A stretch of DNA of 64,000 bases from a virus. The position numbers were made by a program, and so were the translations under genes. The DNA lies in the IMG/VR virus record IMGVR_UViG_3300044959_000131, positions 112,946 through 176,945 of that record, one strand, 5' to 3'. Under the pieces are notes generated by a model, which was given only the letters and a program-made list of their open reading frames with translations, did no database searches and had not been told where the DNA came from. Every line of letters starts with the position of its first letter. Within the stretch, counting starts at the first letter, position 1. Below are positions 26 through 54,602 of this stretch, in pieces.

Positions 26-304
26 ATGGCATATGACACGCTTCATAGGTATGCTCCAGAATTTACTGCAGATCCGCTTCTCGGTGGAGCTCTCCTAAAG
101 AACATCTCAGAGCTTCCAAACATGAGTCACAAGACCATTGTCGAACTAATTGGTGCGCAGAAGAATATAGCTGATGCCAAGAGCCGATACTTCTCTGAAA
201 TGTCAAAGCTTTCTCCACTTCTCGTCCCAGACAGCGGTCATACAGAAGTAAGATATGAGGGCGGGGTTGAAAAGTCGAGAACGGTTAGACGTCCAGGTGT
301 CTGA
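26..304 (+). CDS. Hypothetical virion/head-module protein, probably 5'-truncated by the window edge
   Basis: Frame is open upstream of the ATG at 26 to the window start; its stop abuts the next ATG (TGATG coupling). Confidence 0.6.
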   Translation: MAYDTLHRYAPEFTADPLLGGALLKNISELPNMSHKTIVELIGAQKNIADAKSRYFSEMSKLSPLLVPDSGHTEVRYEGGVEKSRTVRRPGV

Positions 305-3300
305 TGAAGAAACAAGTTCAATTCAGAGGACATACAGAGTTTGGTGTCTTCTGTCGGTCGCTATTTGGAAGTTCAGGAGCGTTTGAGAAGATTGCTGGAG
401 CTCCTCCTTTTGCTGATTGGCCAACAGGAGAAGAGCTTAGAAAGTACATCTCAAAGATTACCAAAGAGGACCGTAAAAAGTACGTATACGTTCTCGTAAA
501 CGCTCTCGGAGCTGGTGAGTACTTCGGTTGCTTCCCAGCAGGCTCCATTGTTCGTTCTAAGCGAGGAGATATCCCTATTGAGCATGTCGTAGTTGGTGAC
601 GAGGTTCTCACTCACAGAAATAGATGGAGAAGGGTCATTGCAACCAACCGCAAGTTTCATGATCTCGGGTTGGTTCATTTGGATGTCACCGGGGTTCCGC
701 ACTTGGCTCCGGCTATCTCAGCGACCCCGAATCATGAGGTTTTTGTCGTTCCTCGTGACGACTTGTTTCGAGCTCGTAGAGATATTCTCTACAAGCGTGG
801 AGAGATGGATTGGAAATCCTCCTACAATGAATTTGTTTCATCTCTGAATCCAGACTGGATGCCGATTGAGTTCATCCGCCCAGGTGACTTTCTGTTTCAG
901 CCATTTCCGATTGAAACTCGGAATTCAGACTTTGCTCAGAAGTGGGGAGATCATGACTTTGCGTACTTGATGGGACTCTTCGCGGCTGAGGGGTGTCTAG
1001 CAGAGAGGTACGGTCGGGATAGGAACAAGGAACGATCGGAGCTGGTTGAGAGGATTGTTTTCGTCATAGGGGATCATGAAGATCACATCGTCAGGAATGT
1101 ACAGCGCATTGTAGAGAAGCATGGGAGATCTGTGACCGTAAAAAGGACCCCAGAGACCAAATCTATTCGCCTTGAACTTTGTTGGAAGGAGTTGGCTCAA
1201 GCTTGTTTGGAGCACATCGGCTGCCATTCAACCGAGAAGAGCTTGTCTTGGGACATTCTCACAATGCCACATGGGTGGCAGGAGGCTTTTCTAGCTCCAT
1301 ATGTTGAGGGTGATGGACACTTTGTAGAGAACTCAAAGTTTGAGCGGTACAACGGCTCAGTGGTTATATCCACCGCATCTAAGAATCTGGCCTTGGACCT
1401 ACGACTTCTCTACGCTCGTCTCGGGATCGTGGTATCTGTTAACGGACGGCATAATACCAAGGCCACTTGGTACAACGGCAACCCAATTTACACCATTCAC
1501 ATAGGAAAAACGTGGGCCAAAGACTGGAATGGCTCGACTAGGGCGTCAAGCTACATCGATAAGGAACGTGGGTTCATCATTTCACCAGTGAGGAGTGTTT
1601 CGCATGAGAAGTGGTCCGGTGAGGTATTTGACCTGACAGTCGAGGAGGACAGTTCCTATGTTGTGAATGGGATTGTCGTCCACAATTCGAATATCAACGC
1701 GGACTACTTTCCTTGGAATGCTCTTGCGCATGAAGGCGACGACTACGGCTACAAAACGTTCCTGAACGCCCATGCATTTCAGCATCACAAGAACAAGGAC
1801 CCGACTAGGGCTTTCGGAGTCCCAGTTCTCTCGGTGCTGAACCACCCGATGAAGCGTGTCGAGCTCATCGTCAGACTCGACAGAGCAAAGGCAAAGGAAG
1901 AGCAGGCTGACGGCATCATCACTCGTATCGAAGCCGGAGAGTTTCCAGATGTCAGCATGGGCTGCGTCCCCAAGTACGCAAAGATATTGAGGAAGGATGG
2001 ACGTATCGTTCACATCGAGGAGATCCGAGAGGGAGACGAGGTCATATCACATCGAGGACGCGCTCAGAGAGTCGTCAGCACGATGGTCCGCCGTCACAAG
2101 GGAACCATCTTTCACATCAAGCCTTATGGTCACAGAGACGCTCTGATTCTGACCGAGGAGCACCCTCTCTGGATCGTTCGTGCTGAGCAGATGGAGTGCC
2201 GTCCATCTTCGAAATCCATAAATCAGGGTCGGAGACAGCATGTATGCACCCCAGACAGCCATCTCACGAAGAAGGGCTGTTCTGGCTGTTTAACGAGGCC
2301 CTCTTTCAAGTTTGAGTGGGTCCGAGCAGATGAGGTTTCCGAGGGAGACTATCTTGCGATGCCTATTCCGACCTTTGAGGCTGAACGAAAGTTCACAGCC
2401 GTCGAGGCAAGGCTTCTCGGATACTATTTGGCAGAGGGCTACGTCCTAAAGAACAACTCTGGCGAGGCAATCGGGGTCGAGTTCTGCACCGGGCTGAATG
2501 AGATCGAAACCCATGACGAACTTCGTAAGCTCGCCACTCTATCTGGCCTCGCAGATAAAGTCGTCGAGCGAGACATCCCTGAGCGCAATGGAAAATACAT
2601 CGCCATCTGGGATCGGAATCTGGCTGATCTTTGCTCCACTCATTGTGGGAGTGGAGCAAAGACGAAGTTTCTGTCCGCCTCATTGATGGGGGCTGACGAA
2701 GAGACTCTACAGCTCTTCATCGGTGCCTACGCGAACGGAGACGGTGGGTGTTACGAGGGTTCCATCTACTTCTCCACTGCATCGGAGCAACTTGCTGACC
2801 AACTTCGAATCTTATTGGCCCGTCTGCGCTGCATCGCAAGCGTAAACGAGATTGTCCACAAGCCGTCGAAGTTGGTTAATACAGAGACCGTAGAGTTTCA
2901 GGTCCGTGTTGGGAAAGACTCGGCTTGGAGACTTACCGGTTCGAGGTTTTCACCCGGTCGGTCAGAGAAGATCTGTAACAAAAGGTTCTTCTACGATTTC
3001 GAGGGAACGACGTATTTGATGACTCCCATCGAGCGTATCGATGAGGTCGAATACGACGACGATGTCTACAACTTTGGAGTCGAGAACGACGACAGTTATC
3101 TGATCGATGGTTTGGCTGTTCACAACTGTAAAGTTCCTTTTGACATTTGTTCGATATGTGGACAGAAATCCAAGACTAGGCTGGATTACTGCTTCCCACC
3201 TGGGACGCCAATTCTGATGGCCGATGGACAGTTCAAGGCCATCGAGGAAGTTCGAGTTGGTGACGAAGTTATCACCCACACTGGATCTACAAAAAGGGTC

Positions 3301-5328
3301 GTTCGTCTACTACCTAGCACGGCTCACGACGGGCTGATCAAGATTACGGCTTATGGATTTGGAGACATATTAGCTACTCCAAATCACCCATTCATGATTG
3401 GAAGGACAAAGACCGGTGTGAAAGGAGGTCGTAAGGCACAGCTCGACGAGTCGCCGCCAGATTGGGTCGCCGCAGAAGACGTTCAGCAATTCGACACTGT
3501 CTTTCTGCCAATTCCAAAAATTGAGCTCTCCAAGGATTCAAAATACAGCAATGCACGCGTCGGGTGGTTACTCGGGCTCTACCTAGCAGAAGGGTCCCCA
3601 AGCTTCTCTCCTGGTGTCGCGCATCCGAAATCAGTCACGTTGTCAGTCAACGTAAGCGAATCCTTTGAGGACCGCGTCAAGGAAGCCGTAACTTTGATGG
3701 GAGGCGACGCCGCAGACGTTAGCGTCTGCGTATCAGAGGAGCGACACAGCAAGAGTATTCGAATCAACAATAGAGAGATTGCTGAGTGGCTTCTACTGAT
3801 GGGTGGGCGTGGTAGTCACACTAAGACGCTCAATCCTGCAGTTTGGCATCTGGGAGAAGAATTTGCTAGGGGTGTTCTTCTCGGTTGGTGTGATGGAGAT
3901 GGTAGCACTGGTGATAACGTAACAAGGATCGCAACTTCGTCTGAATCCCTTGCGAGGCAGATGCAACTTCTTGCTGCATCTTGTGGGATTCTATCAGGTC
4001 TTAAGCTATACTCTCGTGATACCAATTTCTGCCACCAGGATATTTGGTATCTCACGTTCTCGGGAGATGCCTCGGCGGCTCTTCGTGAGCAACGTCCCCA
4101 GGAAGTTTTTGAGAATCAGTCCAAGCTCTTCTTCTGGAAGAATTACCTCTGCTCTACTGTCAGAAGAGTTGAAGAAGTTCCATACCATGGAGACGTCTTC
4201 AACTTTGAAGTCGAGGATGACCACTCATACGTAGCCGGATGCTTTGCGGTTCATAATTGCCATCACATGATGCCTCCTCCAGAGCTGAGGAGTGTATACG
4301 GACCGAACAAGATTCTCCCCGATGGCCGTCGCATCTACGTCATCAACACGATGCCGAAGTTCTTCGACATCAGTTTTGTATTCATTGGTGCAGACAAGAC
4401 GGCGAAGGTGATGGCCAAGGTGGCATCCGTTGGAAACTCGGTTTGCCTTGGAGAAGTGTGCGCAATACCGAGACCGTCAGCCGTTGTTCACGAGCTCACT
4501 TCATCACCACCTTCTGAAGATGGATTCCGGAAGGTCGCTTCTGCAGATTGTTCTTGCGGATGTGGTGGGCCGTGTGATCCAATGTCAAAGCTTGCCGATG
4601 CGTTTGGTGCCACAAAGGTCGGGGAGATCATCAAGACCGTACCAGCTGGAAACTTTGCCAAGAACATCCTTCCAGCAATTGAGGCTTCAGAACCAGACCT
4701 ACCAAAATCTCTTCTCAATGACCTGGCATCTAGGCACACAATTGGGGAGATTACGGGTCGCGCCGCCTCCCTTGGCATTGTGTTGAAGCCTGTTGAGTTC
4801 CAAAGGATTGTACTTGTAAGGATGGGAAATGGAGAACTGGCAGACGAGCTCGACGACGAGTGCAACGTATTCAGACACGTCCAAGCTGTGGACGACTCAG
4901 TCCAACCAGACCCCCTACTTCCTGAAACTGGTCTCCTTCACCTGCTCCGTCGATTTATCTCAACTCGTTCGGGACTGGGGGAGCCACTCCGGATCCGGTC
5001 TGTTAAAGTTATGCTGGGCGTGAAAAAGCCTCTTCCCACCCGGACGCCGATCGAACATCCTCTACTCGACAAAATCAGTGCCGCCTATAATGGGTATAGG
5101 CGGAACCTTCTGAAGAAACTTTCACAGGTCGAAAACGTGATCTACAACGACCCATCGCTAAGAAAAGAGATCTTGGGGAATCGGTTGTCTAGCTTGTTCA
5201 CAAAGACGGCCAACTCCCAAATCTTGTCTCACGATTCGTTGTCGTACATGATGGGCGCGTACTTCACGGATAGAGGCCTGTTGCTCAATACTGGCATTAC
5301 TGATGTAGTGTCAGGTTTAATGGCCTAG
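304..5328 (+). CDS. Putative prohead (capsid maturation) protease precursor with three inteins; spliced product about 544 aa
   Basis: Removing the three inteins gives ...AFQHH...VSMG-CKVPFDICSICGQKSKTRLDY-CHH...FFDISFVFIGAD, which resembles HK97/assemblin-fold protease motifs with a Zn-ribbon insert; lies upstream of scaffold and MCP genes. Confidence 0.7.
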   Translation: MKKQVQFRGHTEFGVFCRSLFGSSGAFEKIAGAPPFADWPTGEELRKYISKITKEDRKKYVYVLVNALGAGEYFGCFPAGSIVRSKRGDIPIEHVVVGDEVLTHRNRWRRVIATNRKFHDLGLVHLDVTGVPHLAPAISATPNHEVFVVPRDDLFRARRDILYKRGEMDWKSSYNEFVSSLNPDWMPIEFIRPGDFLFQPFPIETRNSDFAQKWGDHDFAYLMGLFAAEGCLAERYGRDRNKERSELVERIVFVIGDHEDHIVRNVQRIVEKHGRSVTVKRTPETKSIRLELCWKELAQACLEHIGCHSTEKSLSWDILTMPHGWQEAFLAPYVEGDGHFVENSKFERYNGSVVISTASKNLALDLRLLYARLGIVVSVNGRHNTKATWYNGNPIYTIHIGKTWAKDWNGSTRASSYIDKERGFIISPVRSVSHEKWSGEVFDLTVEEDSSYVVNGIVVHNSNINADYFPWNALAHEGDDYGYKTFLNAHAFQHHKNKDPTRAFGVPVLSVLNHPMKRVELIVRLDRAKAKEEQADGIITRIEAGEFPDVSMGCVPKYAKILRKDGRIVHIEEIREGDEVISHRGRAQRVVSTMVRRHKGTIFHIKPYGHRDALILTEEHPLWIVRAEQMECRPSSKSINQGRRQHVCTPDSHLTKKGCSGCLTRPSFKFEWVRADEVSEGDYLAMPIPTFEAERKFTAVEARLLGYYLAEGYVLKNNSGEAIGVEFCTGLNEIETHDELRKLATLSGLADKVVERDIPERNGKYIAIWDRNLADLCSTHCGSGAKTKFLSASLMGADEETLQLFIGAYANGDGGCYEGSIYFSTASEQLADQLRILLARLRCIASVNEIVHKPSKLVNTETVEFQVRVGKDSAWRLTGSRFSPGRSEKICNKRFFYDFEGTTYLMTPIERIDEVEYDDDVYNFGVENDDSYLIDGLAVHNCKVPFDICSICGQKSKTRLDYCFPPGTPILMADGQFKAIEEVRVGDEVITHTGSTKRVVRLLPSTAHDGLIKITAYGFGDILATPNHPFMIGRTKTGVKGGRKAQLDESPPDWVAAEDVQQFDTVFLPIPKIELSKDSKYSNARVGWLLGLYLAEGSPSFSPGVAHPKSVTLSVNVSESFEDRVKEAVTLMGGDAADVSVCVSEERHSKSIRINNREIAEWLLLMGGRGSHTKTLNPAVWHLGEEFARGVLLGWCDGDGSTGDNVTRIATSSESLARQMQLLAASCGILSGLKLYSRDTNFCHQDIWYLTFSGDASAALREQRPQEVFENQSKLFFWKNYLCSTVRRVEEVPYHGDVFNFEVEDDHSYVAGCFAVHNCHHMMPPPELRSVYGPNKILPDGRRIYVINTMPKFFDISFVFIGADKTAKVMAKVASVGNSVCLGEVCAIPRPSAVVHELTSSPPSEDGFRKVASADCSCGCGGPCDPMSKLADAFGATKVGEIIKTVPAGNFAKNILPAIEASEPDLPKSLLNDLASRHTIGEITGRAASLGIVLKPVEFQRIVLVRMGNGELADELDDECNVFRHVQAVDDSVQPDPLLPETGLLHLLRRFISTRSGLGEPLRIRSVKVMLGVKKPLPTRTPIEHPLLDKISAAYNGYRRNLLKKLSQVENVIYNDPSLRKEILGNRLSSLFTKTANSQILSHDSLSYMMGAYFTDRGLLLNTGITDVVSGLMA
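529..1686 (+). mobile_element. Intein 1 with LAGLIDADG homing endonuclease (386 aa)
   Basis: Starts CFPAGS, ends YVVNGIVVHN followed by Ser; endonuclease motifs LMGLFAAEG and FLAPYVEGDG. Confidence 0.93.
1963..3126 (+). mobile_element. Intein 2 with LAGLIDADG homing endonuclease (388 aa)
   Basis: Starts CVPKYA, ends YLIDGLAVHN followed by Cys; motifs LLGYYLAEG and FIGAYANGDG. Confidence 0.93.
3190..4257 (+). mobile_element. Intein 3 with LAGLIDADG homing endonuclease (356 aa)
   Basis: Starts CFPPGT, ends YVAGCFAVHN followed by Cys; motifs LLGLYLAEG and VLLGWCDGDG. Confidence 0.93.
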
Positions 5329-6406: not shown

Positions 6407-7414
6407 ATGATGCACACCAAGCTCGCCGGTCACATTCCCCTGCACGAGATGATTGCAAACACCATCAATAGTGCTCGCAACAAGCTCGCTGCCGAAGGTG
6501 CGGAGTCAAAGGAAGAGGCCAAGAAGGTTCTTCCATTCATGAAGAAGAAGGAAGAGAAGAAGGAAGAGAAGGAGAAGGCGTCATCTGCCTTCGACTTCTC
6601 TGACCCAGATGAACTTTTGAAGCTAGCATCTGTTCTTTATGAGCTCGGAGACAAGCTTGCTGACTCGAAATACGTCGGCGGCGAGAAGAGTCAAGGTGGA
6701 GAAGTTCTTCCAACCGCCTCTGCTGTCCCAGGAAAGCAGCAATACACGAAGGACTCTTCAAAGTCTCACAACATTCCAGCCAGCACTCCTGAGAAGTCAA
6801 CGTCTGACAATCCAGGAGCAGCGACCGCAACTGAGACGGATGACAGGCCAGGTAAGCTTCTAAGGTACCTACGAGCCAAATACCCAAATAAGGGTGTGTT
6901 GAGAACGTCTCCAGAAGCTGGTCAGGAGAAAAAGTCTTCAGCTCTAGAATACATCCTCGGTAAGGTAGCTACGTTCGGCGCTCAAGAAAAGAGCATGGGT
7001 GGGGAGACGCTGGACAGCGCCTCAGAGCAGGGTCCAAAGCCTCCTTCTGACTCGAAGGGTGGAAACGATGCTCGGAGCCACATCCGATCGAACAAAGCCG
7101 CCATCGATATGAAGAAGGTGGAAGGCAAAAACCCACAAAAGAGGATGTTATCTGAAGTACTGACGGAGCCAGCCCAATCGAAGGCTCATGACTCAAAGGT
7201 TCACGAGAATCTGCGCAATGCCTCCAAAGGGGGCGTGAAGATCGCAGTAGCAAAGGCCTTCCTTCAGAAGATTGCTGCGGATGAGTGCCATCCGCAGCAT
7301 GAGAAGTTGAAGGAAGCGTTGAAGAAGCGTCTGGAGAAGAAGAGCATGGGTGGTCTTGGAATGGGAGCACCAATGCCGACCACTCCTCCTGCTCCGATGC
7401 CAATGGCTCGGTAA
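6407..7414 (+). CDS. Low-complexity scaffold/internal head protein
   Basis: SD GGAG; K/E/S-rich; many K-x-A motifs; head operon position. Confidence 0.6.
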   Translation: MMHTKLAGHIPLHEMIANTINSARNKLAAEGAESKEEAKKVLPFMKKKEEKKEEKEKASSAFDFSDPDELLKLASVLYELGDKLADSKYVGGEKSQGGEVLPTASAVPGKQQYTKDSSKSHNIPASTPEKSTSDNPGAATATETDDRPGKLLRYLRAKYPNKGVLRTSPEAGQEKKSSALEYILGKVATFGAQEKSMGGETLDSASEQGPKPPSDSKGGNDARSHIRSNKAAIDMKKVEGKNPQKRMLSEVLTEPAQSKAHDSKVHENLRNASKGGVKIAVAKAFLQKIAADECHPQHEKLKEALKKRLEKKSMGGLGMGAPMPTTPPAPMPMAR

Positions 7415-41067: not shown

Positions 41068-41186
41068 GTACTTCCCCTCTCCTTGAGAGCTAGCTAATAA
41101 GTAAAAAAATGAGGATGATCTGTGGGTATCATCCTCAAACTACTTATGCCGAACCACCGGAATCTTTTTCTCAGCACTAAAGTGAC

Positions 41187-41541: not shown

Positions 41542-41896
41542 GTCTCTCTCCTTTCTATGTTTCTATGTGCTTATGCCGAAGAATGGAGAGATTTCCTGAA
41601 GAGGCTGCCGACCGATTCAACATCAGCTCTCTGAGCTAAAAGGAAATGGGAGGTTCGTCAGGCGCAAGAACGTCCCCCCATTTCCACCAGTTCGTGCTAG
41701 CTCTCGTCCTGCCATTGATGGCTCGATCTTTTGCACCCCATCTGCCGGGGGAGGGGAGGTGAGAAACAGATAGGGTGCTCCCAAGAGCCTAAACAATGGC
41801 AAAGTACGATGCGGAGGAGGATGAACTTGGCCAAAGCTCCTCCTCAAGATCTTTATACCGTCATGTCGACGGTATTTTCTTCCACGAAATAACTCG

Positions 41897-43914: not shown

Positions 43915-44075
43915 TTGAGTGAAAAAAAGCTTTCACTGGAAACGTGTTTTCACCGCCTTTCGCAGACCTAAGTGATTCACCGATGGCGATGAAATTACCA
44001 GTTTACTGGTCTTTCCGGAACCTCAACGGTTCTCGTTTTGATGTTGATTCAGAGTGAAAGAGAAGGTTGTTCTCT
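43915..44075 (-). ncRNA. Candidate structured leader RNA or sRNA
   Basis: Lies downstream of GGGATAAG (44084-44091); several stems including G-U pairs on the minus strand; alternative AGTGAAA/TTTCACT pairings. Confidence 0.35.
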
Positions 44076-44114
44076 CTGTTCTTCTTATCCCGAGAAAGCG
44101 ACCGCTCTGAAGGC

Positions 44115-44143
44115 TAAAAAAGCCCTCCCTTTCGGAGAGGGCC
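44115..44143 (-). terminator. Intrinsic terminator
   Basis: GCCCTC...GAGGGC stem followed by TTTTTTAGC on the minus strand. Confidence 0.7.
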
Positions 44144-44150
44144 TTTCCTA

Positions 44151-44291
44151 CTACGCGGCGGCCTTCTTCCCCCGGACCAGCTCGGCGGTCTTCTCGACCG
44201 CCGCCGTCGTCGCCATGGCGACGACGGTCGCTCCGGCCACCTTGCCGGCGAACTTCAGTGCGTTGATGAGATGCGGGACGATCTTGTTCAT
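44151..44291 (-). CDS. 46-aa peptide MNKIVPHLINALKFAGKVAGATVVAMATTAAVEKTAELVRGKKAAA
   Basis: Own promoter motif (44343), SD AAAGG and terminator; below the ORF-track cutoff. Confidence 0.7.
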   Translation of the reverse strand: MNKIVPHLINALKFAGKVAGATVVAMATTAAVEKTAELVRGKKAAA

Positions 44292-44369
44292 GTTGCGCCT
44301 TTCTTTCTGCCCACGAGGGGCCTTTTACGAAGAGCGAAATGCCTTATCCAATGGTTTTACCAAGAATTG

Positions 44370-44822
44370 CTATTTGTAAGAGAGGTTGATCCAGGCTTTT
44401 AAGGCCAGTGCCTCCCATGCACGTACAAGAGTCTGCTCCAGAGCGTTATAGTTCTCGAAGAAATCACTTGGGCTGAGGTTGTATATCTTCAGATTGGTCC
44501 AAGCTGAGACCACTTTTGCTGGGAACTCGGCAATGATGCTCATCTCAAGGTGGTAACGGTCAGACTCGGCCACTGAATGCCCGCCCGGAAGTCCTGCGCG
44601 GTCGAACAAATCTACGACGATCTGGTCTTTTTCATTCTGGTCTTTTTCTTTCTCAGTGATGGGCCGTTCCGTCTTGATCCTCTTGTAGAAGAGTCCGAGA
44701 TGGAAGTTGTCATCTATCCTCGGCTGCCACTTGAATCCGAGCTCCGTCATTCTCGATTTTATAGTGTCGAATTTCACTGTTTTCACTGTCCCCTCTCTTC
44801 GGCTGCCAATTTTCTTTTTCAT
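44370..44822 (-). CDS. Hypothetical protein, tandem paralog B
   Basis: Aligns with 44822-45202 (KFD.IKSRMT.LGF...GLFYK...LPGG..V.E.DRY..E..I..EFP...LVRAWEALA). Confidence 0.75.
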   Translation of the reverse strand: MKKKIGSRREGTVKTVKFDTIKSRMTELGFKWQPRIDDNFHLGLFYKRIKTERPITEKEKDQNEKDQIVVDLFDRAGLPGGHSVAESDRYHLEMSIIAEFPAKVVSAWTNLKIYNLSPSDFFENYNALEQTLVRAWEALALKAWINLSYK

Positions 44823-45202
44823 CAGGCCAGTGCCTCCCATGCACGTACAAGAGCTTGCTCTAGAATATCGTAGTTCTCGAAGAAGTCACTCGGGCTGAAG
44901 CTGTACGCTTTCAGCTTGGCCCAAGCTGAAATCGCTTTTGATGGGAAGGCGATGTCCACTGGAAACTCGCCAGTGATGTTCACCTCGAATTTGTAGCGGT
45001 CCTCCTCGGACACGGCATTCCCGCCCGGAATGCTTGCGTGGTCGAATACTTCCACGACGAGCTGAGCCTTCCCGTTGGCGGTGCATGGACGCTTCGTCTG
45101 GACACTCTTGTAGAAGAGTCCGACAAAGAAGGTCCCAGTTTTGTGTTCCTGCAACTTGAAACCAAGGTCCGTCATTCTCGACTTTATCTTGTCGAATTTC
45201 AT
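44822..45202 (-). CDS. Hypothetical protein, tandem paralog A
   Basis: SD GGAGG; 30-nt identical 3' segment at 44402-44431 and 44824-44853. Confidence 0.75.
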   Translation of the reverse strand: MKFDKIKSRMTDLGFKLQEHKTGTFFVGLFYKSVQTKRPCTANGKAQLVVEVFDHASIPGGNAVSEEDRYKFEVNITGEFPVDIAFPSKAISAWAKLKAYSFSPSDFFENYDILEQALVRAWEALA

Positions 45203-45242
45203 TGCCTCCTAGCTCCGTTTGAGAAATCACTGTCGAGTCTAT

Positions 45243-46586
45243 CTACCACTCATCGAGAGCCGCCAATCTACCGATGGCTCCAGCCTGGCGCTCCATCTTC
45301 TCGAGTCGTCTTCTTGTCTTTTTGGCTGCGTACCTCCATACACCGGGCGATACTGCGAACCCACCGCGCTTGTTCTCGTCAAGCCACTTCCCGATCACGT
45401 CGCAAAGGAACAGGCCCAAACGGTATTCACCGAGAAGTTTGCGCTCGACGACGTTTGGTGCTGTTGCCCACACCGGAGATCCGGTACAGACGACCTGCCA
45501 CAGGCGGACGTACGGAATCGGGAAAGGACGCCGACTGAGCCTCATTGGCGCACGGGCCATTGCAAGCCAGAGCCACTCACCACGTGCATATCCAGGCTCC
45601 GCCGCTGGAGGAGCAGGTTGAAGCCAGTGGCGTTTTATTCGAGGTTGCCGAGTGGGAGGAGATTGTGGCGTCTCCACCAGTGTTTGACCAACAGCCGTCT
45701 CCTGTTCGGTCGTCGATTGATCGACATCAACTGGCTGTTGGGCTGACAGATTTGGATATACTCTCACAATAGATGATTGCCCCTTACCTGCCCTCCGTAT
45801 ATACGAAATCCATTCTTCGTGTCCGTCTGCCCTCCATTCTGCACGCCTGTGACGTCCCCTCACGTGGTTCGCTGCACGAGCGCGTCGCAGTGCATTACGT
45901 GTAGGGTGAATGCCGTTTTCGTCTACAGCGACTCCGCATATGATACGCCTTCCGGCCTTCGAGAGATAAACACGAGTCTTTGCAGTATGCAGAGACCAAC
46001 CGAAACGTCGACTCGCGACGTCTTCCAGTACCCGAACAACATCGGTCCACCGTCTTTCGTCACGCAGAGAAACAGCCAGATCGTCGGCGTAGCGCGTGTA
46101 AATGTATTCGAGGCCACGGGGACCAAGTAACGCATCGAGTTTTCGAACTACCTCCGCGTCATACCTCGCACCGACCAGATTGGCCGCGCTCGGAGATGTC
46201 GGAAGTCCCTGAGCCGTAACAGGCTGCTTGTGCCATGATGCTTGGTACGTGACAGCGTCTGCTATCTCCCGTGCATTGTCTGGTGTTTGACCAGAACGAA
46301 CCAACGCACGTAGCACCTGTTCTCTGGTGACGCTGTCAAACCAGGATTTCAGGTCGCACGTCACCGTAGCCGTCCATGGTCCGACATGTTGTAGAGCGGC
46401 GGTGACTGGAGAGCGGCTTTCTACGAATCCGTGGGATACATCAGCGACGCCAAGACGTTGTGCAAGGCGTCTCTCGGAATACATCAGAACCTTAAGAAAC
46501 AGAGATCGAAGATATTCGGCTTCATCTGGATCAGGTGCAACGACACGTCGCAGCTTGACGCCTTTCCTGATTTCTAATTCTTTCAT
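45243..46586 (-). CDS. Retron-type reverse transcriptase with C-terminal extension
   Basis: HGF...AALQH, DLKSWFDSV, QGLPTSPSAANL, YTRYADDLAVS and KTRV...ICGVAV; SD GAGGGAGG before ATG 46586. Confidence 0.88.
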   Translation of the reverse strand: MKELEIRKGVKLRRVVAPDPDEAEYLRSLFLKVLMYSERRLAQRLGVADVSHGFVESRSPVTAALQHVGPWTATVTCDLKSWFDSVTREQVLRALVRSGQTPDNAREIADAVTYQASWHKQPVTAQGLPTSPSAANLVGARYDAEVVRKLDALLGPRGLEYIYTRYADDLAVSLRDERRWTDVVRVLEDVASRRFGWSLHTAKTRVYLSKAGRRIICGVAVDENGIHPTRNALRRARAANHVRGRHRRAEWRADGHEEWISYIRRAGKGQSSIVRVYPNLSAQQPVDVDQSTTEQETAVGQTLVETPQSPPTRQPRIKRHWLQPAPPAAEPGYARGEWLWLAMARAPMRLSRRPFPIPYVRLWQVVCTGSPVWATAPNVVERKLLGEYRLGLFLCDVIGKWLDENKRGGFAVSPGVWRYAAKKTRRRLEKMERQAGAIGRLAALDEW

Positions 46587-46643
46587 CCCAGACCTCCCTC
46601 CCCGGCCCGGGCCCGTAGCAGGCCCAGGCCGGGGAGTTTGAAA

Positions 46644-46799
46644 CGCACCACGAAGCGGGGTTGCGCCGGAGTGAGAGACTTGTCCGAGAGTCATCTCTCT
46701 CTCACGTAGGCCTCAACCCCGCGCCTACCCGTCGTGGAGATCTTCAACGGGTGCCCCGACGTTCATCGCCGGGCCCTCCGATCTCCAAGAGCTGGTGCG
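46644..46799 (-). ncRNA. Retron msr-msd RNA (predicted)
   Basis: a1/a2 arms CGCACCA (46799-46793) and TGGTGCG (46650-46644); unpaired G at 46792 right after the 5' arm; two msr-like stem-loops; long msd-like hairpin 46655-46722. Confidence 0.7.
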
Positions 46800-46812
46800 G
46801 GTTGTGAAGGGA

Positions 46813-47313
46813 CTAGAGAGACGAGAGTTGATCGATTGCGGCCTTGCCTCTCACGTGTCGAGAGTATGAGGCCTGCTGCCGCTCGATCTCCTTGACGGAC
46901 CTCTCCAGCCCAACGGTCCTGTTGTGGAGCCACACCTCCACCTCGTTCCAGCCGATTATCCAGCTGGCGATGTCGCGGGGGCTTCGCCACAACCTCAGCC
47001 ACTCGTCGGCCACGCTGTGTGGAGACGAGTGGCGTACGTGCTTCTGGTACCTCGTCCACAGGACGTCGCAGTAGCCGTCGTTGGCCACCGACAGGATCAG
47101 CGCCCTTTGATGGACGTTGTATCCAACGTCCTCTCGCTTCCCTTGGACGTGGACCCAGAGGACTTCCCCGCCCGCCCTCCACGGGCTTTGAGGGGGGCGG
47201 ATGTGCAGACGCGGATTGGTCCGAAGTTTCCGTCTCAGCACTTCGGCCGCGTCCGCAGCTCTCTTGACTACGGCCGTCACCTGCTCGATGACGGCCTCGT
47301 CGAGCTTCGACAT
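46813..47313 (-). CDS. Hypothetical protein directly upstream of the retron RNA (candidate effector)
   Basis: SD AAGGAGG overlaps the upstream stop; Trp-rich 166 aa. Confidence 0.65.
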   Translation of the reverse strand: MSKLDEAVIEQVTAVVKRAADAAEVLRRKLRTNPRLHIRPPQSPWRAGGEVLWVHVQGKREDVGYNVHQRALILSVANDGYCDVLWTRYQKHVRHSSPHSVADEWLRLWRSPRDIASWIIGWNEVEVWLHNRTVGLERSVKEIERQQASYSRHVRGKAAIDQLSSL

Positions 47314-47317
47314 CGAT

Positions 47318-49114
47318 TCACCTCCTTTCTTCTCGATTCACCTCTACGATTCGCGCCCACGGTGGAACGTAGGACCTGTAGCGTCCACCGACGAGCGCGA
47401 CGATCACGGGGATGTGCGGTGGCTCTTCTGGCCATATACCATCGCCGTCAGTGACGACGACGATGACGTCCGCACGCCACCCACGCCGAGGCTCACAAGC
47501 GCGGGCGATTCCCCAGCGGAGGTCTGTGCCCCCGCCACCGCTGTAGAGACCGAGGCGGGACACGTCGCGCGCCGAAGTCACACGCGCATCACCATGGACG
47601 GTTGTATCCACGGAGATCACGCGCACGCCTTCGGATCCACCGCCCACAACGGAGCGGCAGATGGCTGCGACGACGCTCGCCACCTCGCGGCCCGTGTTGC
47701 TCATCGAGCCAGATGTGTCCAGCACGATGGAGACACGAGCCGATGTACGGACACCGCCCGGCACGAGACGGCCAGAGGCGATGGACGGTGCCCATCGTGG
47801 TCTGGAGTAGCTCGGGGATTCTTCGCCCCGGCGGTTCGTCAGCTCGACGCCGAGGTAGGCTCTCAATCGGCGCTCCCACCGATTTGCCTCGGCCGAGCTC
47901 GCCCGCTGACCTTCCTCCCACTGGTCGACCCAAACGAGCCAACCGCCAGGCAGATGACCCCGGCCTTTGGACCCTTTTGGGCCTTTCCCCTTCTCGGCCT
48001 CGCGCACCGCTTTGGCGACCTCCTTGCGGATCTGCTCGGCCTCCGCCTCGGTTCGGCCTTTCTCGGCGTCTTCCGGGCGTTCCCACGGGGCGGGTTTCCC
48101 CGTACAAGCGGACCCCCCCGCGCAGCACCGCTCGCGGGGGGAAGAGGAGACAGGACTACCGGGACCCGAGTGCTGCTCAGACGCAGAGTCACCGTGGTCA
48201 TGCGGGGATCCATTCGATGAGTCTGCGCTGGCCCCAGACGAGGCAGGGTACGAAGACCCCACGCCGCCATGGGATTCGTCCCCGGCGGAGCCGGTCGACC
48301 CATGGCCATCGAGTGTCGTGGCTGGGGTAGCTCCGGAGGGGGCGGTGGGGTCCCCACCCGTAGGACCCTCCGATCTTCCTCCGGTGCCCGGTGTCAACTG
48401 CCCACCGGCGCCTGGTGACTGCCCACCAGACGAACCTTCGCCACCAGGCTCAGGAGACGCGCCTCCTGACCCTGAACCAGCCCCATTCCCACTGGATGGC
48501 GTGGCCACACCGTCCAGTGAGGAGTCCTGTCCCCTCCTCCCGCCGTGAGAGAGAGGACGCTGCAACTGCAGGGCCTTGTAGTACTTCTCGGCCAACAGGC
48601 CGTTTGGGGCCCCGCAGTCGCGTGGGAGAATCGAGCGCACGCACTTGCACTCCGCTGGCCCAGGGCAATTGAGCGGCCATGGGCCGAGTGCAATCTGGCG
48701 CTCGATCGGGACGAGTGCAGCGATTGCCCTGGAGAGGTAGGGCCACCGCTGCACTGCCGCAGCGCGGGCAAGAGACAACGGGGACATACCGAGTCGCTTC
48801 GCCTCTTCCACGACCGATGGTCCCCGCCTCCAACAACCATCTGGTAACAGCTGCGCCAGCTGGTCGTCGTCGTTGATCTCGGCGTCCGCTGCGAGATTCC
48901 ACATTGTCGGAATCGCGCTCAGACGCCGACAACGCGCCGCATGGGCACGAACGACGTGCCCGACTTCATGAGCAAGGACGGCGGCGGCCTCTTCCACCGT
49001 CCATTGCGAGAGCGCCTCGAGCGACCAGTAGAGGCACCAGGCCTCACTGGTCGCAAGTGTCCATGATGTTCCCCCTTCGGGTCCGCGACGAACGGGGATC
49101 GACGACGCGCTCAC
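47318..49114 (-). CDS. DUF2201-type metallopeptidase-like plus vWA domain protein
   Basis: VLAHEVGH (HExxH), WNLAADAEIND, long G/S/P linker, MIDAS VLDTSGSMS...GGGGTD...VVVTDG; GTG start overlaps the ATPase stop. Confidence 0.85.
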   Translation of the reverse strand: MSASSIPVRRGPEGGTSWTLATSEAWCLYWSLEALSQWTVEEAAAVLAHEVGHVVRAHAARCRRLSAIPTMWNLAADAEINDDDQLAQLLPDGCWRRGPSVVEEAKRLGMSPLSLARAAAVQRWPYLSRAIAALVPIERQIALGPWPLNCPGPAECKCVRSILPRDCGAPNGLLAEKYYKALQLQRPLSHGGRRGQDSSLDGVATPSSGNGAGSGSGGASPEPGGEGSSGGQSPGAGGQLTPGTGGRSEGPTGGDPTAPSGATPATTLDGHGSTGSAGDESHGGVGSSYPASSGASADSSNGSPHDHGDSASEQHSGPGSPVSSSPRERCCAGGSACTGKPAPWERPEDAEKGRTEAEAEQIRKEVAKAVREAEKGKGPKGSKGRGHLPGGWLVWVDQWEEGQRASSAEANRWERRLRAYLGVELTNRRGEESPSYSRPRWAPSIASGRLVPGGVRTSARVSIVLDTSGSMSNTGREVASVVAAICRSVVGGGSEGVRVISVDTTVHGDARVTSARDVSRLGLYSGGGGTDLRWGIARACEPRRGWRADVIVVVTDGDGIWPEEPPHIPVIVALVGGRYRSYVPPWARIVEVNREERR

Positions 49115-50253
49115 CGCTTGTCACCTCCAGTCGCGACTTCTAGGAGGTCGGCGTAGCGGGCCGCCGCCGTCTCAACTTCGGCTGGCATGGGCTTATTACG
49201 CCAGACGGGGTCGGCGGACCTCGCCCTCGCCAGTGTTCTTGCCGCGCCGAGCGAGAGGTCCGCATCGACGCGGGCGATGTACTGCCAGGCGGCAGCCCAT
49301 CTCGATTCTCGCTGTGGGTGATCGGCGCACGCCGCAGCGGCGACGGCCTCACACGCAGCCTGAGCCGCGTCGAGGCGCGTCGGCACAGGCGCGTTGAGAG
49401 GATCGAGAAGGACCCGCTCTGGATCTGGCAGGTCCGAGGCCTGGACCCACGCCAGAAACTCTTCGGCTGCGCCCTCTCCGACGCAGCCCGCAATGGCGGT
49501 GCACGCCGCCATCACGTTCCCACCCGCCGCGGCAAGGAGGCGGGAGGCGTTATCCCACGACCTCGGTGAGGGCCAGGCCTGGCCCTGCTTCGTGGGATCC
49601 TTCGGAAGGACGAGAAGGGGTGGCTTCGAGCCCGGAGCGCCCCCATCCTTCCGGTGGCTGTCCGTGGCGGTCTGCGCCGCCAGGACATATCCCGCGACCA
49701 GCGCCCGCGCTGCGGCGAGCGCAGGCGTCTGCGGTCGGCCCCAACCGCTCTTGGCCCCCTCGGCCCACGCCATGGGGTCCACTTTCCACTGAAAGTGGGC
49801 CCAGCGGTTGGCCGATGAGGGCCCCAGCTCGCCGCAATCCTCGCCCCAATCGGGGGGATTGGCGGCCGCCAAGACGCGGAGACCCTTGAGGTTCAGTCCG
49901 GCAAACCGCTTGGACTGAACCAGGCAGAGAATCTCCGCTCTGGCACCGGAAGGCCAGGCGGTTAGTTCATCCAGGAACAGCCATGCCGGCAGCCCCTGGG
50001 AAAGCGCCTGGTGGAGTTCGAGTGCCCACTCAGGCGCCAGCTTCTTTGCCCGTCCGGCCGACAGGTCCGGGATAATGATCCCGGCCCAGTCCGCCCTCCG
50101 GGCGTCCTCGGCGGAAAGCGTTACGAGCGTTGCTCCCGCCTCTTCGGCAGCCGCCTCCACACAGGCGGTCTTGCCGACCCCCGGTGGTCCCCAGAGGAGC
50201 ACCGGGACATCCGCCTCTACAGCGAGGCGGACGGTCAGTGGTAATGAGTTCAT
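49111..50253 (-). CDS. MoxR-type AAA+ ATPase
   Basis: Walker A GPPGVGKT, Walker B LFLDE, AANPP, SANRW and SPRSW; SD AAGGGAGG before ATG 50253. Confidence 0.88.
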   Translation of the reverse strand: MNSLPLTVRLAVEADVPVLLWGPPGVGKTACVEAAAEEAGATLVTLSAEDARRADWAGIIIPDLSAGRAKKLAPEWALELHQALSQGLPAWLFLDELTAWPSGARAEILCLVQSKRFAGLNLKGLRVLAAANPPDWGEDCGELGPSSANRWAHFQWKVDPMAWAEGAKSGWGRPQTPALAAARALVAGYVLAAQTATDSHRKDGGAPGSKPPLLVLPKDPTKQGQAWPSPRSWDNASRLLAAAGGNVMAACTAIAGCVGEGAAEEFLAWVQASDLPDPERVLLDPLNAPVPTRLDAAQAACEAVAAAACADHPQRESRWAAAWQYIARVDADLSLGAARTLARARSADPVWRNKPMPAEVETAAARYADLLEVATGGDKR

Positions 50254-50287
50254 ATCCTCCCTTCTAAGTGGATGTCCGACCAATATT

Positions 50288-50295
50288 CTTATGCC
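50288..50295 (-). promoter_or_regulatory. Phage promoter-like motif GGCATAAG heading the ATPase-vWA-retron operon
   Basis: Same motif recurs intergenically upstream of many minus-strand units. Confidence 0.6.
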
Positions 50296-50599
50296 GATGA
50301 ATGCCCCGTTTTCTGTGGATGGCGCTGCGTTGAACATGGAACCATTCGGTCATCCATGCTCAATGTCCGTTTTTCATGGTCATCTACGGGGTTCATCTAC
50401 GTCCATTAGTAGACAAATGGCCGTAGGACAGTCTGAGGGCTCACGTATCCCATCCCTGAGTGGCCCTCCAATGGGTTCGCTCGTTCGTATTCTAATGGCC
50501 GTAGGCCCCTTCTGAACCCACGAGAATTCCTCACGTGACAGGAGTTCGGCGCCACGAGGGAAATGACGGGTTCATGGTCTCCCAGGTAGACCAGATTCA

Positions 50600-50820
50600 A
50601 CCCCTGAATCCCCTCTGAAACCCCCCCCTCATCCCTACCCCCATCATTATTCCCATCCCCACCACCATCCCATCCCCCATACTCCCCATCTCTTCACCAT
50701 CCCATCCCTCCCCTCACCACTGTCCCTCATGTCCCTCACCCCCACTCACTCACCCCCCTCACCACTCACCACTGTGTTCCCCACACCACTTCCTCACGCC
50801 AGCCCCCTCCCCTGGCCTGG
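50600..50820 (-). other. Extremely G-rich (minus strand) non-coding tract with G-quadruplex potential
   Basis: Plus strand is almost free of G and has many CCC+ runs; no ORF of 60 aa or more. Confidence 0.6.
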
Positions 50821-50896
50821 TTCAGATGCTGGGTTCCAATGAGGGCTAACAAAGAGAGGACCCAACTGGACCCCTCCTTGCGCCCCGACATCCGGT

Positions 50897-51202
50897 TCAA
50901 GCCTTGACGCCGGACTGTTGAGTGAGGGTGTGGATGACCCGAGCGAGCTGGTTTTTCATAGCGTCGCTCAGGGTCCTGATCTGGGCACGGTAGATCTCGA
51001 TCTCCAACAGCACGAGACCGAGGGACTCCTCCCTCCCCTCCTTGACGCCCCTGGCAAACTCCTGGATCTGCTTCTCCAGCTGCCGGGCCCTCTCGAGGAC
51101 CCAGCCGTCGATGAGTGGATTATCGGCGGCGACAATGAGGTCCTGAGACGCTCCGAGGAGCTCGTCAGCGACCTGGTTCATGACCATACGAAGTTCATCC
51201 AT
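50897..51202 (-). CDS. Helical hypothetical protein
   Basis: SD GGGGAGG before MDEL at 51202. Confidence 0.6.
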   Translation of the reverse strand: MDELRMVMNQVADELLGASQDLIVAADNPLIDGWVLERARQLEKQIQEFARGVKEGREESLGLVLLEIEIYRAQIRTLSDAMKNQLARVIHTLTQQSGVKA

Positions 51203-51247
51203 GGTTTTACCTCCCCTGGATTGCAGTGAATTTCCCATCTGGGAGGA

Positions 51248-51679
51248 TCAGCGCTCCTCTTCAGGGCCAGAGGCCCTGTGGAGGAGTTTGGTGATGGTCT
51301 CGATGTCATCGAGACCATCCCTGAGAATCTCGATGACATCGAGGAGATACCCGCTCCCCTCGTGGAGGACATCAATTTCATCACCCTGGACTTGAGAGGC
51401 CGAGACTTGGATCTGGACTGTGGCCTCGTCCTTCAATTCCTCAAGATGGCGGAGCCTCTCCTCTGCCATCCAGAGAATGTTCTGAATCCGGTCTACAGCC
51501 TCTTCCTTCGAGATGCCGCCCTCCATGAGGGCGATTAGGGCGCTTCGAGCCTTCTGGAGCTGATGCTCTCGAATGCCCATCGCCACATCCTTTGCAGTAT
51601 CCCTCAGATACTGCAACCTGTCGACCAAGTACCTTCGAGCTGCTCGTACAACGATTTCTGCGCCGTCAATCTTTTCCAT
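51248..51679 (-). CDS. Helical hypothetical protein
   Basis: SD GGAGG before MEKID; GGGATAAG upstream. Confidence 0.6.
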   Translation of the reverse strand: MEKIDGAEIVVRAARRYLVDRLQYLRDTAKDVAMGIREHQLQKARSALIALMEGGISKEEAVDRIQNILWMAEERLRHLEELKDEATVQIQVSASQVQGDEIDVLHEGSGYLLDVIEILRDGLDDIETITKLLHRASGPEEER

Positions 51680-54487: not shown

Positions 54488-54602
54488 TCTATCACCTCCT
54501 TTCTTGGGATTCTTATGCCCATTAAAAGGATGCTTCTGCATGTCCCGGAGAGCTAAAAAGAAGAGCTAAGAAAACGGACCCAAACTTCGGGTCCGTCGGT
54601 GG

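Follow-up and report, generated by a model that had tools for sequence, protein, structure and literature searches.

A retron-like reverse transcriptase and candidate upstream RNA lie beside a MoxR-class ATPase and a zincin-vWA protein in a myovirus genome

Gene organization of the locus

We analysed a 64,000-nucleotide stretch of viral DNA (the window; positions 112,946 to 176,945 of the IMG/VR record IMGVR_UViG_3300044959_000131) in which a retron-like reverse transcriptase (RT), a putative structured RNA upstream of it and a MoxR-class AAA+ ATPase paired with a DUF2201 protein lie in one run of genes. The 64-kb window is the terminal part of the 176,945-bp record, which has a CheckV completeness of 93%, and the source virus is a large, uncultured myovirus. 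Positions are those of the window and loci fetched for comparison carry L numbers. On the minus strand the order is ATPase, DUF2201 protein, the open reading frame ORF166, a 226-nt non-coding stretch, RT, d126 and d156, with the following features:

49111..50253, minus strand: MoxR-class AAA+ ATPase, 380 aa (PF00004, phrog_1297)
47318..49114, minus strand: DUF2201 protein, 598 aa (PF13203 and PF09967, DUF2201_N plus DUF2201)
46813..47313, minus strand: ORF166, orphan protein with homologues only in L002 (63%), L170 and L171 (85%)
46640..46803, minus strand: candidate retron-type non-coding RNA (fold, stem swap, family covariation)
45243..46586, minus strand: retron-type RT, 447 aa, YADD at residues 166-169 (RVT_1)
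44822..45202, minus strand: d126, small protein after a 40-nt gap from the RT, conserved in L002 (72%)
44370..44822, minus strand: d156, tandem paralogue of d126, likely start ATG overlapping the d126 stop (TGATG)

An earlier note on this DNA had described the ATPase, DUF2201 (vWA) protein, ORF166, RNA and RT as five tightly coupled elements on one strand, and this layout was confirmed. All five are on the minus strand. The ATPase stop and the DUF2201 start share GTGA at 49114-49111, the 4-nt overlap described in the note, with GGAGG 9 nt upstream. The DUF2201 gene stop TGA (47320-47318) sits between the GGAGG Shine-Dalgarno sequence and the ORF166 ATG at 47313, and the a1 arm of the RNA (CGCACCA) begins 13 nt past the ORF166 stop. 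Two starts were corrected: the likeliest ATPase start is 50253, preceded by GGGAGG, in place of 50337, and the likeliest RT start is 46586 in place of 46694.

The reverse transcriptase

The best PADLOC matches of the RT were all retron RT models at about 90 bits (RT_outgroup, 2.9e-26; types IX, XIII and II-A), and matches to Drt2 and Drt3a were far weaker. The best curated NCBIfam model was that of retron St85, at 82 bits and under its cutoff of 235. The family alignment carries the motifs HGFxxGRSPVT(N/A)AxxH, QGLPTSP, YTRYADD and RRI(V/I)(T/C)G(V/I), of which we take VT(N/A)AxxH and RRI(V/I)(T/C)G(V/I) to be the NAxxH and VTG signatures of retrons; the window RT reads AALQH and ICG where its relatives read NAxxH and VTG. 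A C-terminal extension of about 165 aa is restricted to this lineage and had no Atlas match. Judged by these comparisons the RT appears retron-like and outside every defined retron type.

Assignment of the RT to a diversity-generating retroelement (DGR) was considered and rejected because no template/variable repeat (TR/VR) was present anywhere in the genome, blastn of 44300-47400 against the whole 177-kb sequence returning only the d126/d156 paralogues and hairpins. GenBank phages gave no match at the DNA level; for the RT and vWA proteins there was none at 1e-8, and RT matches at 1e-3 were of just 23-31% identity. An IMG/VR search with the single RT sequence returned no match, and relatives were recovered via the alignment.

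A candidate retron-type RNA upstream of the RT

The RNA upstream of the RT and its immediate surroundings contain these elements:

46799-46793 and 46650-46644, minus strand: closing stem a1/a2 (CGCACCA / TGGTGCG)
46792, minus strand: candidate branching G of the invariant GCT right after a1
46786-46780 and 46742-46736, minus strand: stem enclosing a conserved hairpin at 46773-46755 (CCCGGCG...CGTCGGG)
46722-46655, minus strand: msd-like 68-nt hairpin
46598..46636, minus strand: G+C-rich hairpin of 16 bp, past a2 and ahead of the RT start, whose arms (inverted repeat I2) are 94% complementary

The predicted fold lay well under that of shuffled sequence (z = -3.8 to -5.9). In the close relative L002 the enclosing stem GGAGATC/GATCTCC is wholly swapped for TTCACTC/GAGTGAA, and the 3' part of the RNA (about 140 nt) is almost identical across three relatives whose ORF166 proteins are just 63-85% identical to that of the window. 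The 3' arm of the G+C-rich hairpin extends into the RT ribosome-binding site, and this hairpin is kept in L002 and L170.

The 5' RNA motif was also found ahead of the RT in L003, L006, L009, L010, L011 and L012, and three times in tandem in L008. RNAalifold run on six other clade members with the window excluded found the closing stem, with double compensatory changes in four of six pairs. In each of GGATCG/CGATCC, GGAATG/CATTCC, GGCCCA/TGGGCC and TGAACTG/CGGTTCA the two arms are complementary, and five distinct a1/a2 sequence pairs were found, each complementary and each ahead of the invariant GCT. Single 6-8-bp a1/a2 stems were no better than shuffled sequence, the support for the closing stem being aligned covariation only. 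A covariance model of the 5' motif (R1) matched RT-upstream sites only across 1.5 Mb of fetched loci; it gave no match among the outer members of the clade, in loci with DUF2201 only or around a second AAA gene in the genome that holds the window. Rfam gave no match in 44000-51500 at E <= 1.

A covarying closing stem followed by an invariant G, together with a long 3' hairpin, is the retron arrangement, and these analyses provide good in-silico evidence that the upstream RNA is of retron type. The RT and RNA quite probably form a working retron-type unit.

In L008 the three tandem copies of the 5' motif span 6616-6956, and a matching a2 arm, beside the RT start, accompanies the last copy only.

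The ATPase and DUF2201 protein

The earlier note had assigned the ATPase to the MoxR class, and structure prediction together with its phage relatives agreed with this. The protein has Walker A K28, Walker B D95/E96 and a C-terminal helical domain. An AlphaFold (AF2) model built from a 28-sequence alignment had a pLDDT (predicted local distance difference test) of 89, and its best PDB matches were NorQ and CbbQ (probability 1.0, TM-score by target about 0.6). The window ATPase itself passes only PF00004; among 28 phage relatives adjoining DUF2201 genes, AAA_5 was matched in 23 and AAA_3 in 15. Weak NCBIfam matches of the ATPase were to RFC and were limited to the P-loop. The model supports a MoxR-class ATPase with a predicted fold that is NorQ/CbbQ-like and not clamp-loader-like.

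In the DUF2201 protein an N-terminal zincin domain (H49-E50-x-x-H53, H58) is retained as conserved columns, and a C-terminal vWA domain has a full metal ion-dependent adhesion site (MIDAS; D466, S468, S470, T530, D556) in which DxSxS, T and D are invariant. PDB fold matches back the vWA fold, and the protein has long disordered Gly/Ser/Pro-rich inserts. Taken together, the NorQ/CbbQ fold, the AAA_5 and AAA_3 matches, the HExxH motif, the full MIDAS and the vWA fold indicate a canonical MoxR-vWA couple to which a zincin domain has been added. The solved relatives NorQ-NorD and CbbQ-CbbO remodel client complexes. Pfam and PADLOC scans of the proteins of the block revealed no nuclease domain. PHROG 1314, which is matched by the zincin-vWA protein, is labelled 'HNH endonuclease'; this label looks wrong because no HNH domain was found in the protein.

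Linkage of the RT clade to AAA+ modules

An RT profile split the fetched loci into clade members at 206 bits or more and ordinary retron-like RTs at 160 bits or less, and the clade was set apart in the tree with 100% SH-aLRT support. It was met almost solely in viral and metagenomic contigs and was nearly absent from the bacterial genomes sampled. All 10 members of the inner RT clade had an AAA+ gene nearby, and the closest relatives L002, L170 and L171 carry the same block as the window.

Three kinds of AAA+ module were found beside the RTs. The MoxR-like ATPase with DUF2201 lies upstream of the RT in the window, L002, L008 and L013 and downstream in L030. A bpMoxR gene with a vWA gene lies downstream of the RT in L019 and upstream in L020. 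A classic AAA gene with an approximately 86-aa protein and DUF2997 was found in L003-L006, L009-L012, L014-L017, L024 and L026. Metagenome contigs added linked loci (L254, L258, L264, L268, L277 and L299), and in L086, which is outside the clade, bpMoxR and vWA genes are directly upstream of the RT. The order of RT and module varies, both gene orders occurring, and junctions can be tight (22 nt in L264, 4-18 nt in L020). AAA+ modules aside, no flanking gene family ties the window's group to the other subgroups; a large gene, c5, is seen repeatedly in loci of the DUF2997 type. The earlier note had taken a lack of such linkage elsewhere as grounds for refuting its proposal, and this outcome did not occur: RT homologues lie next to MoxR-like/DUF2201 or vWA genes in L008, L013, L030, L258, L264, L268, L277 and L299 and next to bpMoxR and vWA genes in L019, L020 and L086, in differing orders and with otherwise unrelated flanks.

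Linkage was counted after clustering RTs at 60% identity, with a partner required within 5 kb on the same strand. An AAA+ partner was present in 10 of 19 clade clusters compared to 5 of 32 viral RT clusters outside the clade (Fisher p = 0.003). Counted overall, the RT adjoins an AAA+ module in about 10-12 of the 19-20 lineages of the clade. Around ordinary retron RTs in 80 bacterial loci, AAA+ genes occurred within 8 kb in three, none of them adjacent, and a vWA or DUF2997 gene within 8 kb in 0/80.

The classic AAA beside the sister RTs (L003 339-1535) was matched in PADLOC by IetA (5.5e-20) and TRIP13.

Comparison with known systems

Retrons are described as systems of bacterial defence whose effectors are nucleases, degrade NAD, act at membranes or modify nucleotides. 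Thirteen types have been described, of which type I carries an ABC/SMC/OLD-type ATPase with an HNH or TOPRIM nuclease; type I retrons are reportedly the ATPase-linked ones. Like a type I retron, the window has an RT with retron-like motifs and co-oriented accessory genes that include an ATPase; unlike type I, the ATPase is a MoxR-class AAA+ protein and its partner a zincin-vWA protein and not an HNH or TOPRIM nuclease. The upstream RNA resembles that of retrons in being closed by inverted repeats, in the G beside a1 and in the long 3' hairpin. The block differs from described retrons in that no PADLOC retron accessory model matched its genes (the vWA protein, ORF166, d126 and d156 had no PADLOC match, and the ATPase only one to IetA over the P-loop), its RT falls under curated cutoffs and its clade is phage-borne and not bacterial-chromosomal. 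The earlier note had been unable to place the block among described retron types, and the PADLOC result bears this out.

The ATPase/DUF2201 pair resembles NorQ-NorD, CbbQ-CbbO, RavA-ViaA and the phage phrog_1297/phrog_1314 pair in its NorQ/CbbQ-like fold, complete MIDAS and translational coupling. It differs from these MoxR-vWA remodelling pairs in that the vWA protein adds an HExxH domain and in that, in this minority of loci, the pair goes together with an RT and a structured RNA. Full-text literature searches turned up no report of a retron with a link to MoxR, vWA or DUF2201 and nothing pertinent on DUF2997 or phage-encoded RTs, the nearest report being that of Kaur et al. 2020 (PMC7159879) on conflict systems of multicellular bacteria in which MoxR-vWA genes are coupled to DGR reverse transcriptases. 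Those systems likewise place a MoxR-vWA couple together with an RT in a predicted conflict system; unlike the window, they have a DGR-type RT, TR/VR repeats and hypervariable effectors, whereas the window has a retron-type RT and no TR/VR and comes from a phage. The IetAS system also pairs an AAA+ ATPase with a protease. However, the window ATPase matches IetA over the P-loop only (7e-4), and its partner is a zincin and not a serine protease. To our knowledge there is no RT in IetAS.

Interpretation and alternative explanations

Because this combination is found again in other, unrelated contigs of phages, the block is probably an undescribed retron variant. Guilt by association is the standard used in defining retron types, and by this standard the recurrent linkage makes the AAA+ module a candidate accessory. 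The linkage fits an RT-RNA unit that is dependent on, or co-regulated with, an AAA+ remodelling module. That the locus is a phage-borne retron-type element with such a module as its conserved partner is a reading to which we give an even chance, and the case for the AAA+/vWA pair working functionally with the RT-RNA unit, drawn from genome comparison, is likewise evenly balanced.

In the mechanism we propose, the YADD RT would copy the upstream RNA, closed by a1/a2 and with its invariant G 3' of a1, into RNA-linked cDNA (msDNA), and the RT and RNA/DNA would assemble into a particle. A hexamer of the co-transcribed MoxR-type ATPase and the zincin-vWA adaptor would then act on this particle, or the particle would gate them. 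The vWA domain would dock the client through its MIDAS face, remodelling force would come from the ATPase, and proteolysis by the HExxH domain would be the output. The role would probably be a phage conflict function, either exclusion of competing phages or counter-defence. We infer that msDNA is made, that the parts are physically coupled, that a protease gives the output and what the biological role is, and the AAA+/vWA pair might conceivably remodel or release the RT-msDNA complex. In its most specific form the proposal is a phage-specific retron lineage with an AAA+ chaperone module (MoxR/zincin-vWA or AAA/DUF2997) as output or regulator and the msDNA particle as gating client, used against competing viruses or host defences; we hold this tentatively, at somewhat below an even chance. 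If true, this would be the first case of a retron tied to a machine for protein remodelling and proteolysis, with a new effector logic, and the widespread, unexplained phage ATPase/DUF2201 pair would gain its first candidate client. The compact RNA with conserved ends may also interest users of retrons for in-cell DNA production.

Several observations weigh against a partnership between the RT-RNA unit and the AAA+ module. An RT was present within 8 kb in only 1 of 79 sampled IMG/VR DUF2201 loci (the ATPase being next door in at least 55 of the 79), and the 78 loci without an RT indicate that the pair needs no retron. The same phage carries a second, classic 525-aa AAA about 150 kb away, outside the window (L252 4100-6900, genome 10.1-12.9 kb), with a weak DUF2997-like open reading frame and neither an RT nor the RNA motif nearby. 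Such AAA+ modules are thus autonomous and common, and it is the RT-RNA unit that seeks them out; the association is one-way, the RT-RNA unit going with AAA+ modules and not the reverse. The high GC that the earlier note had assigned to the whole block did not extend to the RT: the ATPase, DUF2201 gene, ORF166 and RNA are at 62-69% GC with a third-position GC (GC3) of 0.69-0.81, compared to 54% and 0.46 for the RT domain, lower even than the phage background. L002 has the same split between RT and upstream genes, and the difference in GC3 suggests separate origins. In eight to nine lineages of the clade no AAA+ gene lies within 8 kb, and some of these lineages adjoin a DnaB, PolA or sliding-clamp gene. 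The sister RTs L008 and L009 carry non-homologous AAA modules, whereas known retron RT clades are described as each keeping to a single effector type. Finally, d126 and d156 could be the true RT partners in place of the AAA+ pair.

Much of this evidence also favours two independent modules lying side by side, a self-contained retron, perhaps with d126/d156 as effectors, and an ordinary MoxR-vWA phage module that occupy one accessory or early-gene hotspot and may use one promoter, without a shared mechanism. The RT-free DUF2201 loci, the deviating RT composition, the switch of partner type between sister RTs and the canonical effector position of d126/d156 all point this way, as does the finding that in other clade members the RT stop is translationally coupled to different genes, of 166 aa in L003 and L006 and of 500 aa in L010 and L011. 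However, linkage to AAA+ genes recurs in 10-12 lineages with differing orders and unrelated flanks and is absent around the 80 bacterial retron RTs, and the gene junctions are tight. We regard simple juxtaposition as rather unlikely.

An RT-RNA unit serving phage replication or DNA metabolism, supplying a cDNA primer or regulatory single-stranded DNA with the AAA+ proteins as replication-associated remodellers, would suit the AAA+-less members that adjoin DnaB with DUF932 (L018) or PolA (L028), the sliding-clamp gene just downstream of the RT in L013 and the essentially viral clade, which is missing from representative bacterial genomes. The RFC matches of the ATPase would also suit it, but these cover the P-loop only and the modelled fold is NorQ/CbbQ-like. 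In the window no replication genes flank the block, all neighbours being ORFans, and we know of no retron with a replication role; this explanation appears improbable. We give still less credence to an RT that is not retron-like in action, with the RNA templating another product (DRT-type cDNA) or serving as a cis-regulatory leader for RT translation. Scores under the cutoff of every curated retron model, the lack of an Rfam match, the overlap of the extra GC hairpin with the RT ribosome-binding site and single a1/a2 stems no better than shuffled sequence are consistent with such a use. The Drt2 and Drt3a matches are nevertheless far weaker than the retron matches, and the closing stem covaries and precedes the invariant G, which with the long 3' hairpin is the layout of retrons.

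Other features of the locus and window

ORF166 had no Pfam, PHROG, PADLOC or NCBIfam match and was missing from the other RT-AAA-vWA loci examined; its Atlas model was poor and gave no usable structural neighbours. The genes d126 and d156 share 70% nucleotide identity (phmmer 4e-41) and had no family match and no PADLOC match. They occupy the classical retron effector position and are possible candidate effectors. Terminator-like hairpins bracket the gene run at 50874-50857 and 44139-44123, with none inside by a consensus scan only, and the transcription unit probably also takes in d126 and d156 downstream of the RT. The features at the limits of the unit are:

50275..50297, minus strand: 23-nt conserved block with GGCATAAG, candidate promoter or regulatory site, identical in L002
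44123..44139, minus strand: terminator-like hairpin with T-run, likely transcription-unit end (consensus scan only)

The 23-nt block is identical between the window and L002 although the flanks diverge, and the GGCATAAG copy within it (50295-50288) is 35 nt ahead of the ATPase start. The window has 4 copies of GGCATAAG, all on the minus strand, compared to 0.94 expected, and 4 were reached in 2 of 100 shuffles. The motif may be a phage early-promoter element. The other copies, also on the minus strand, are at 41143-41150, 41570-41577 and 54512-54519. Upstream of the GGCATAAG block lies an 11-bp inverted repeat, TTGAGCATGGA ... TCCATGTTCAA, at 50363-50353 / 50340-50330, which is operator-like or hairpin-like and is retained in L002 with few changes. 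In the interval from the upstream terminator-like hairpin to the ATPase leader, the minus strand at 50600-50830 carries an approximately 220-nt, nearly pure G/A/T tract with many GGG+ runs, no open reading frame and a plus-strand GC skew of -0.36.

Plus-strand genes extend to about 40.5 kb of the window, among them those for a tail-sheath-like protein and for a 1674-aa protein with inteins. Beyond about 40.6 kb small ORFan genes lie on the minus strand, with the RT/ATPase block among them. The 1674-aa protein (window 304-5328) contains two or three Hint/intein modules with LAGLIDADG homing endonuclease domains.

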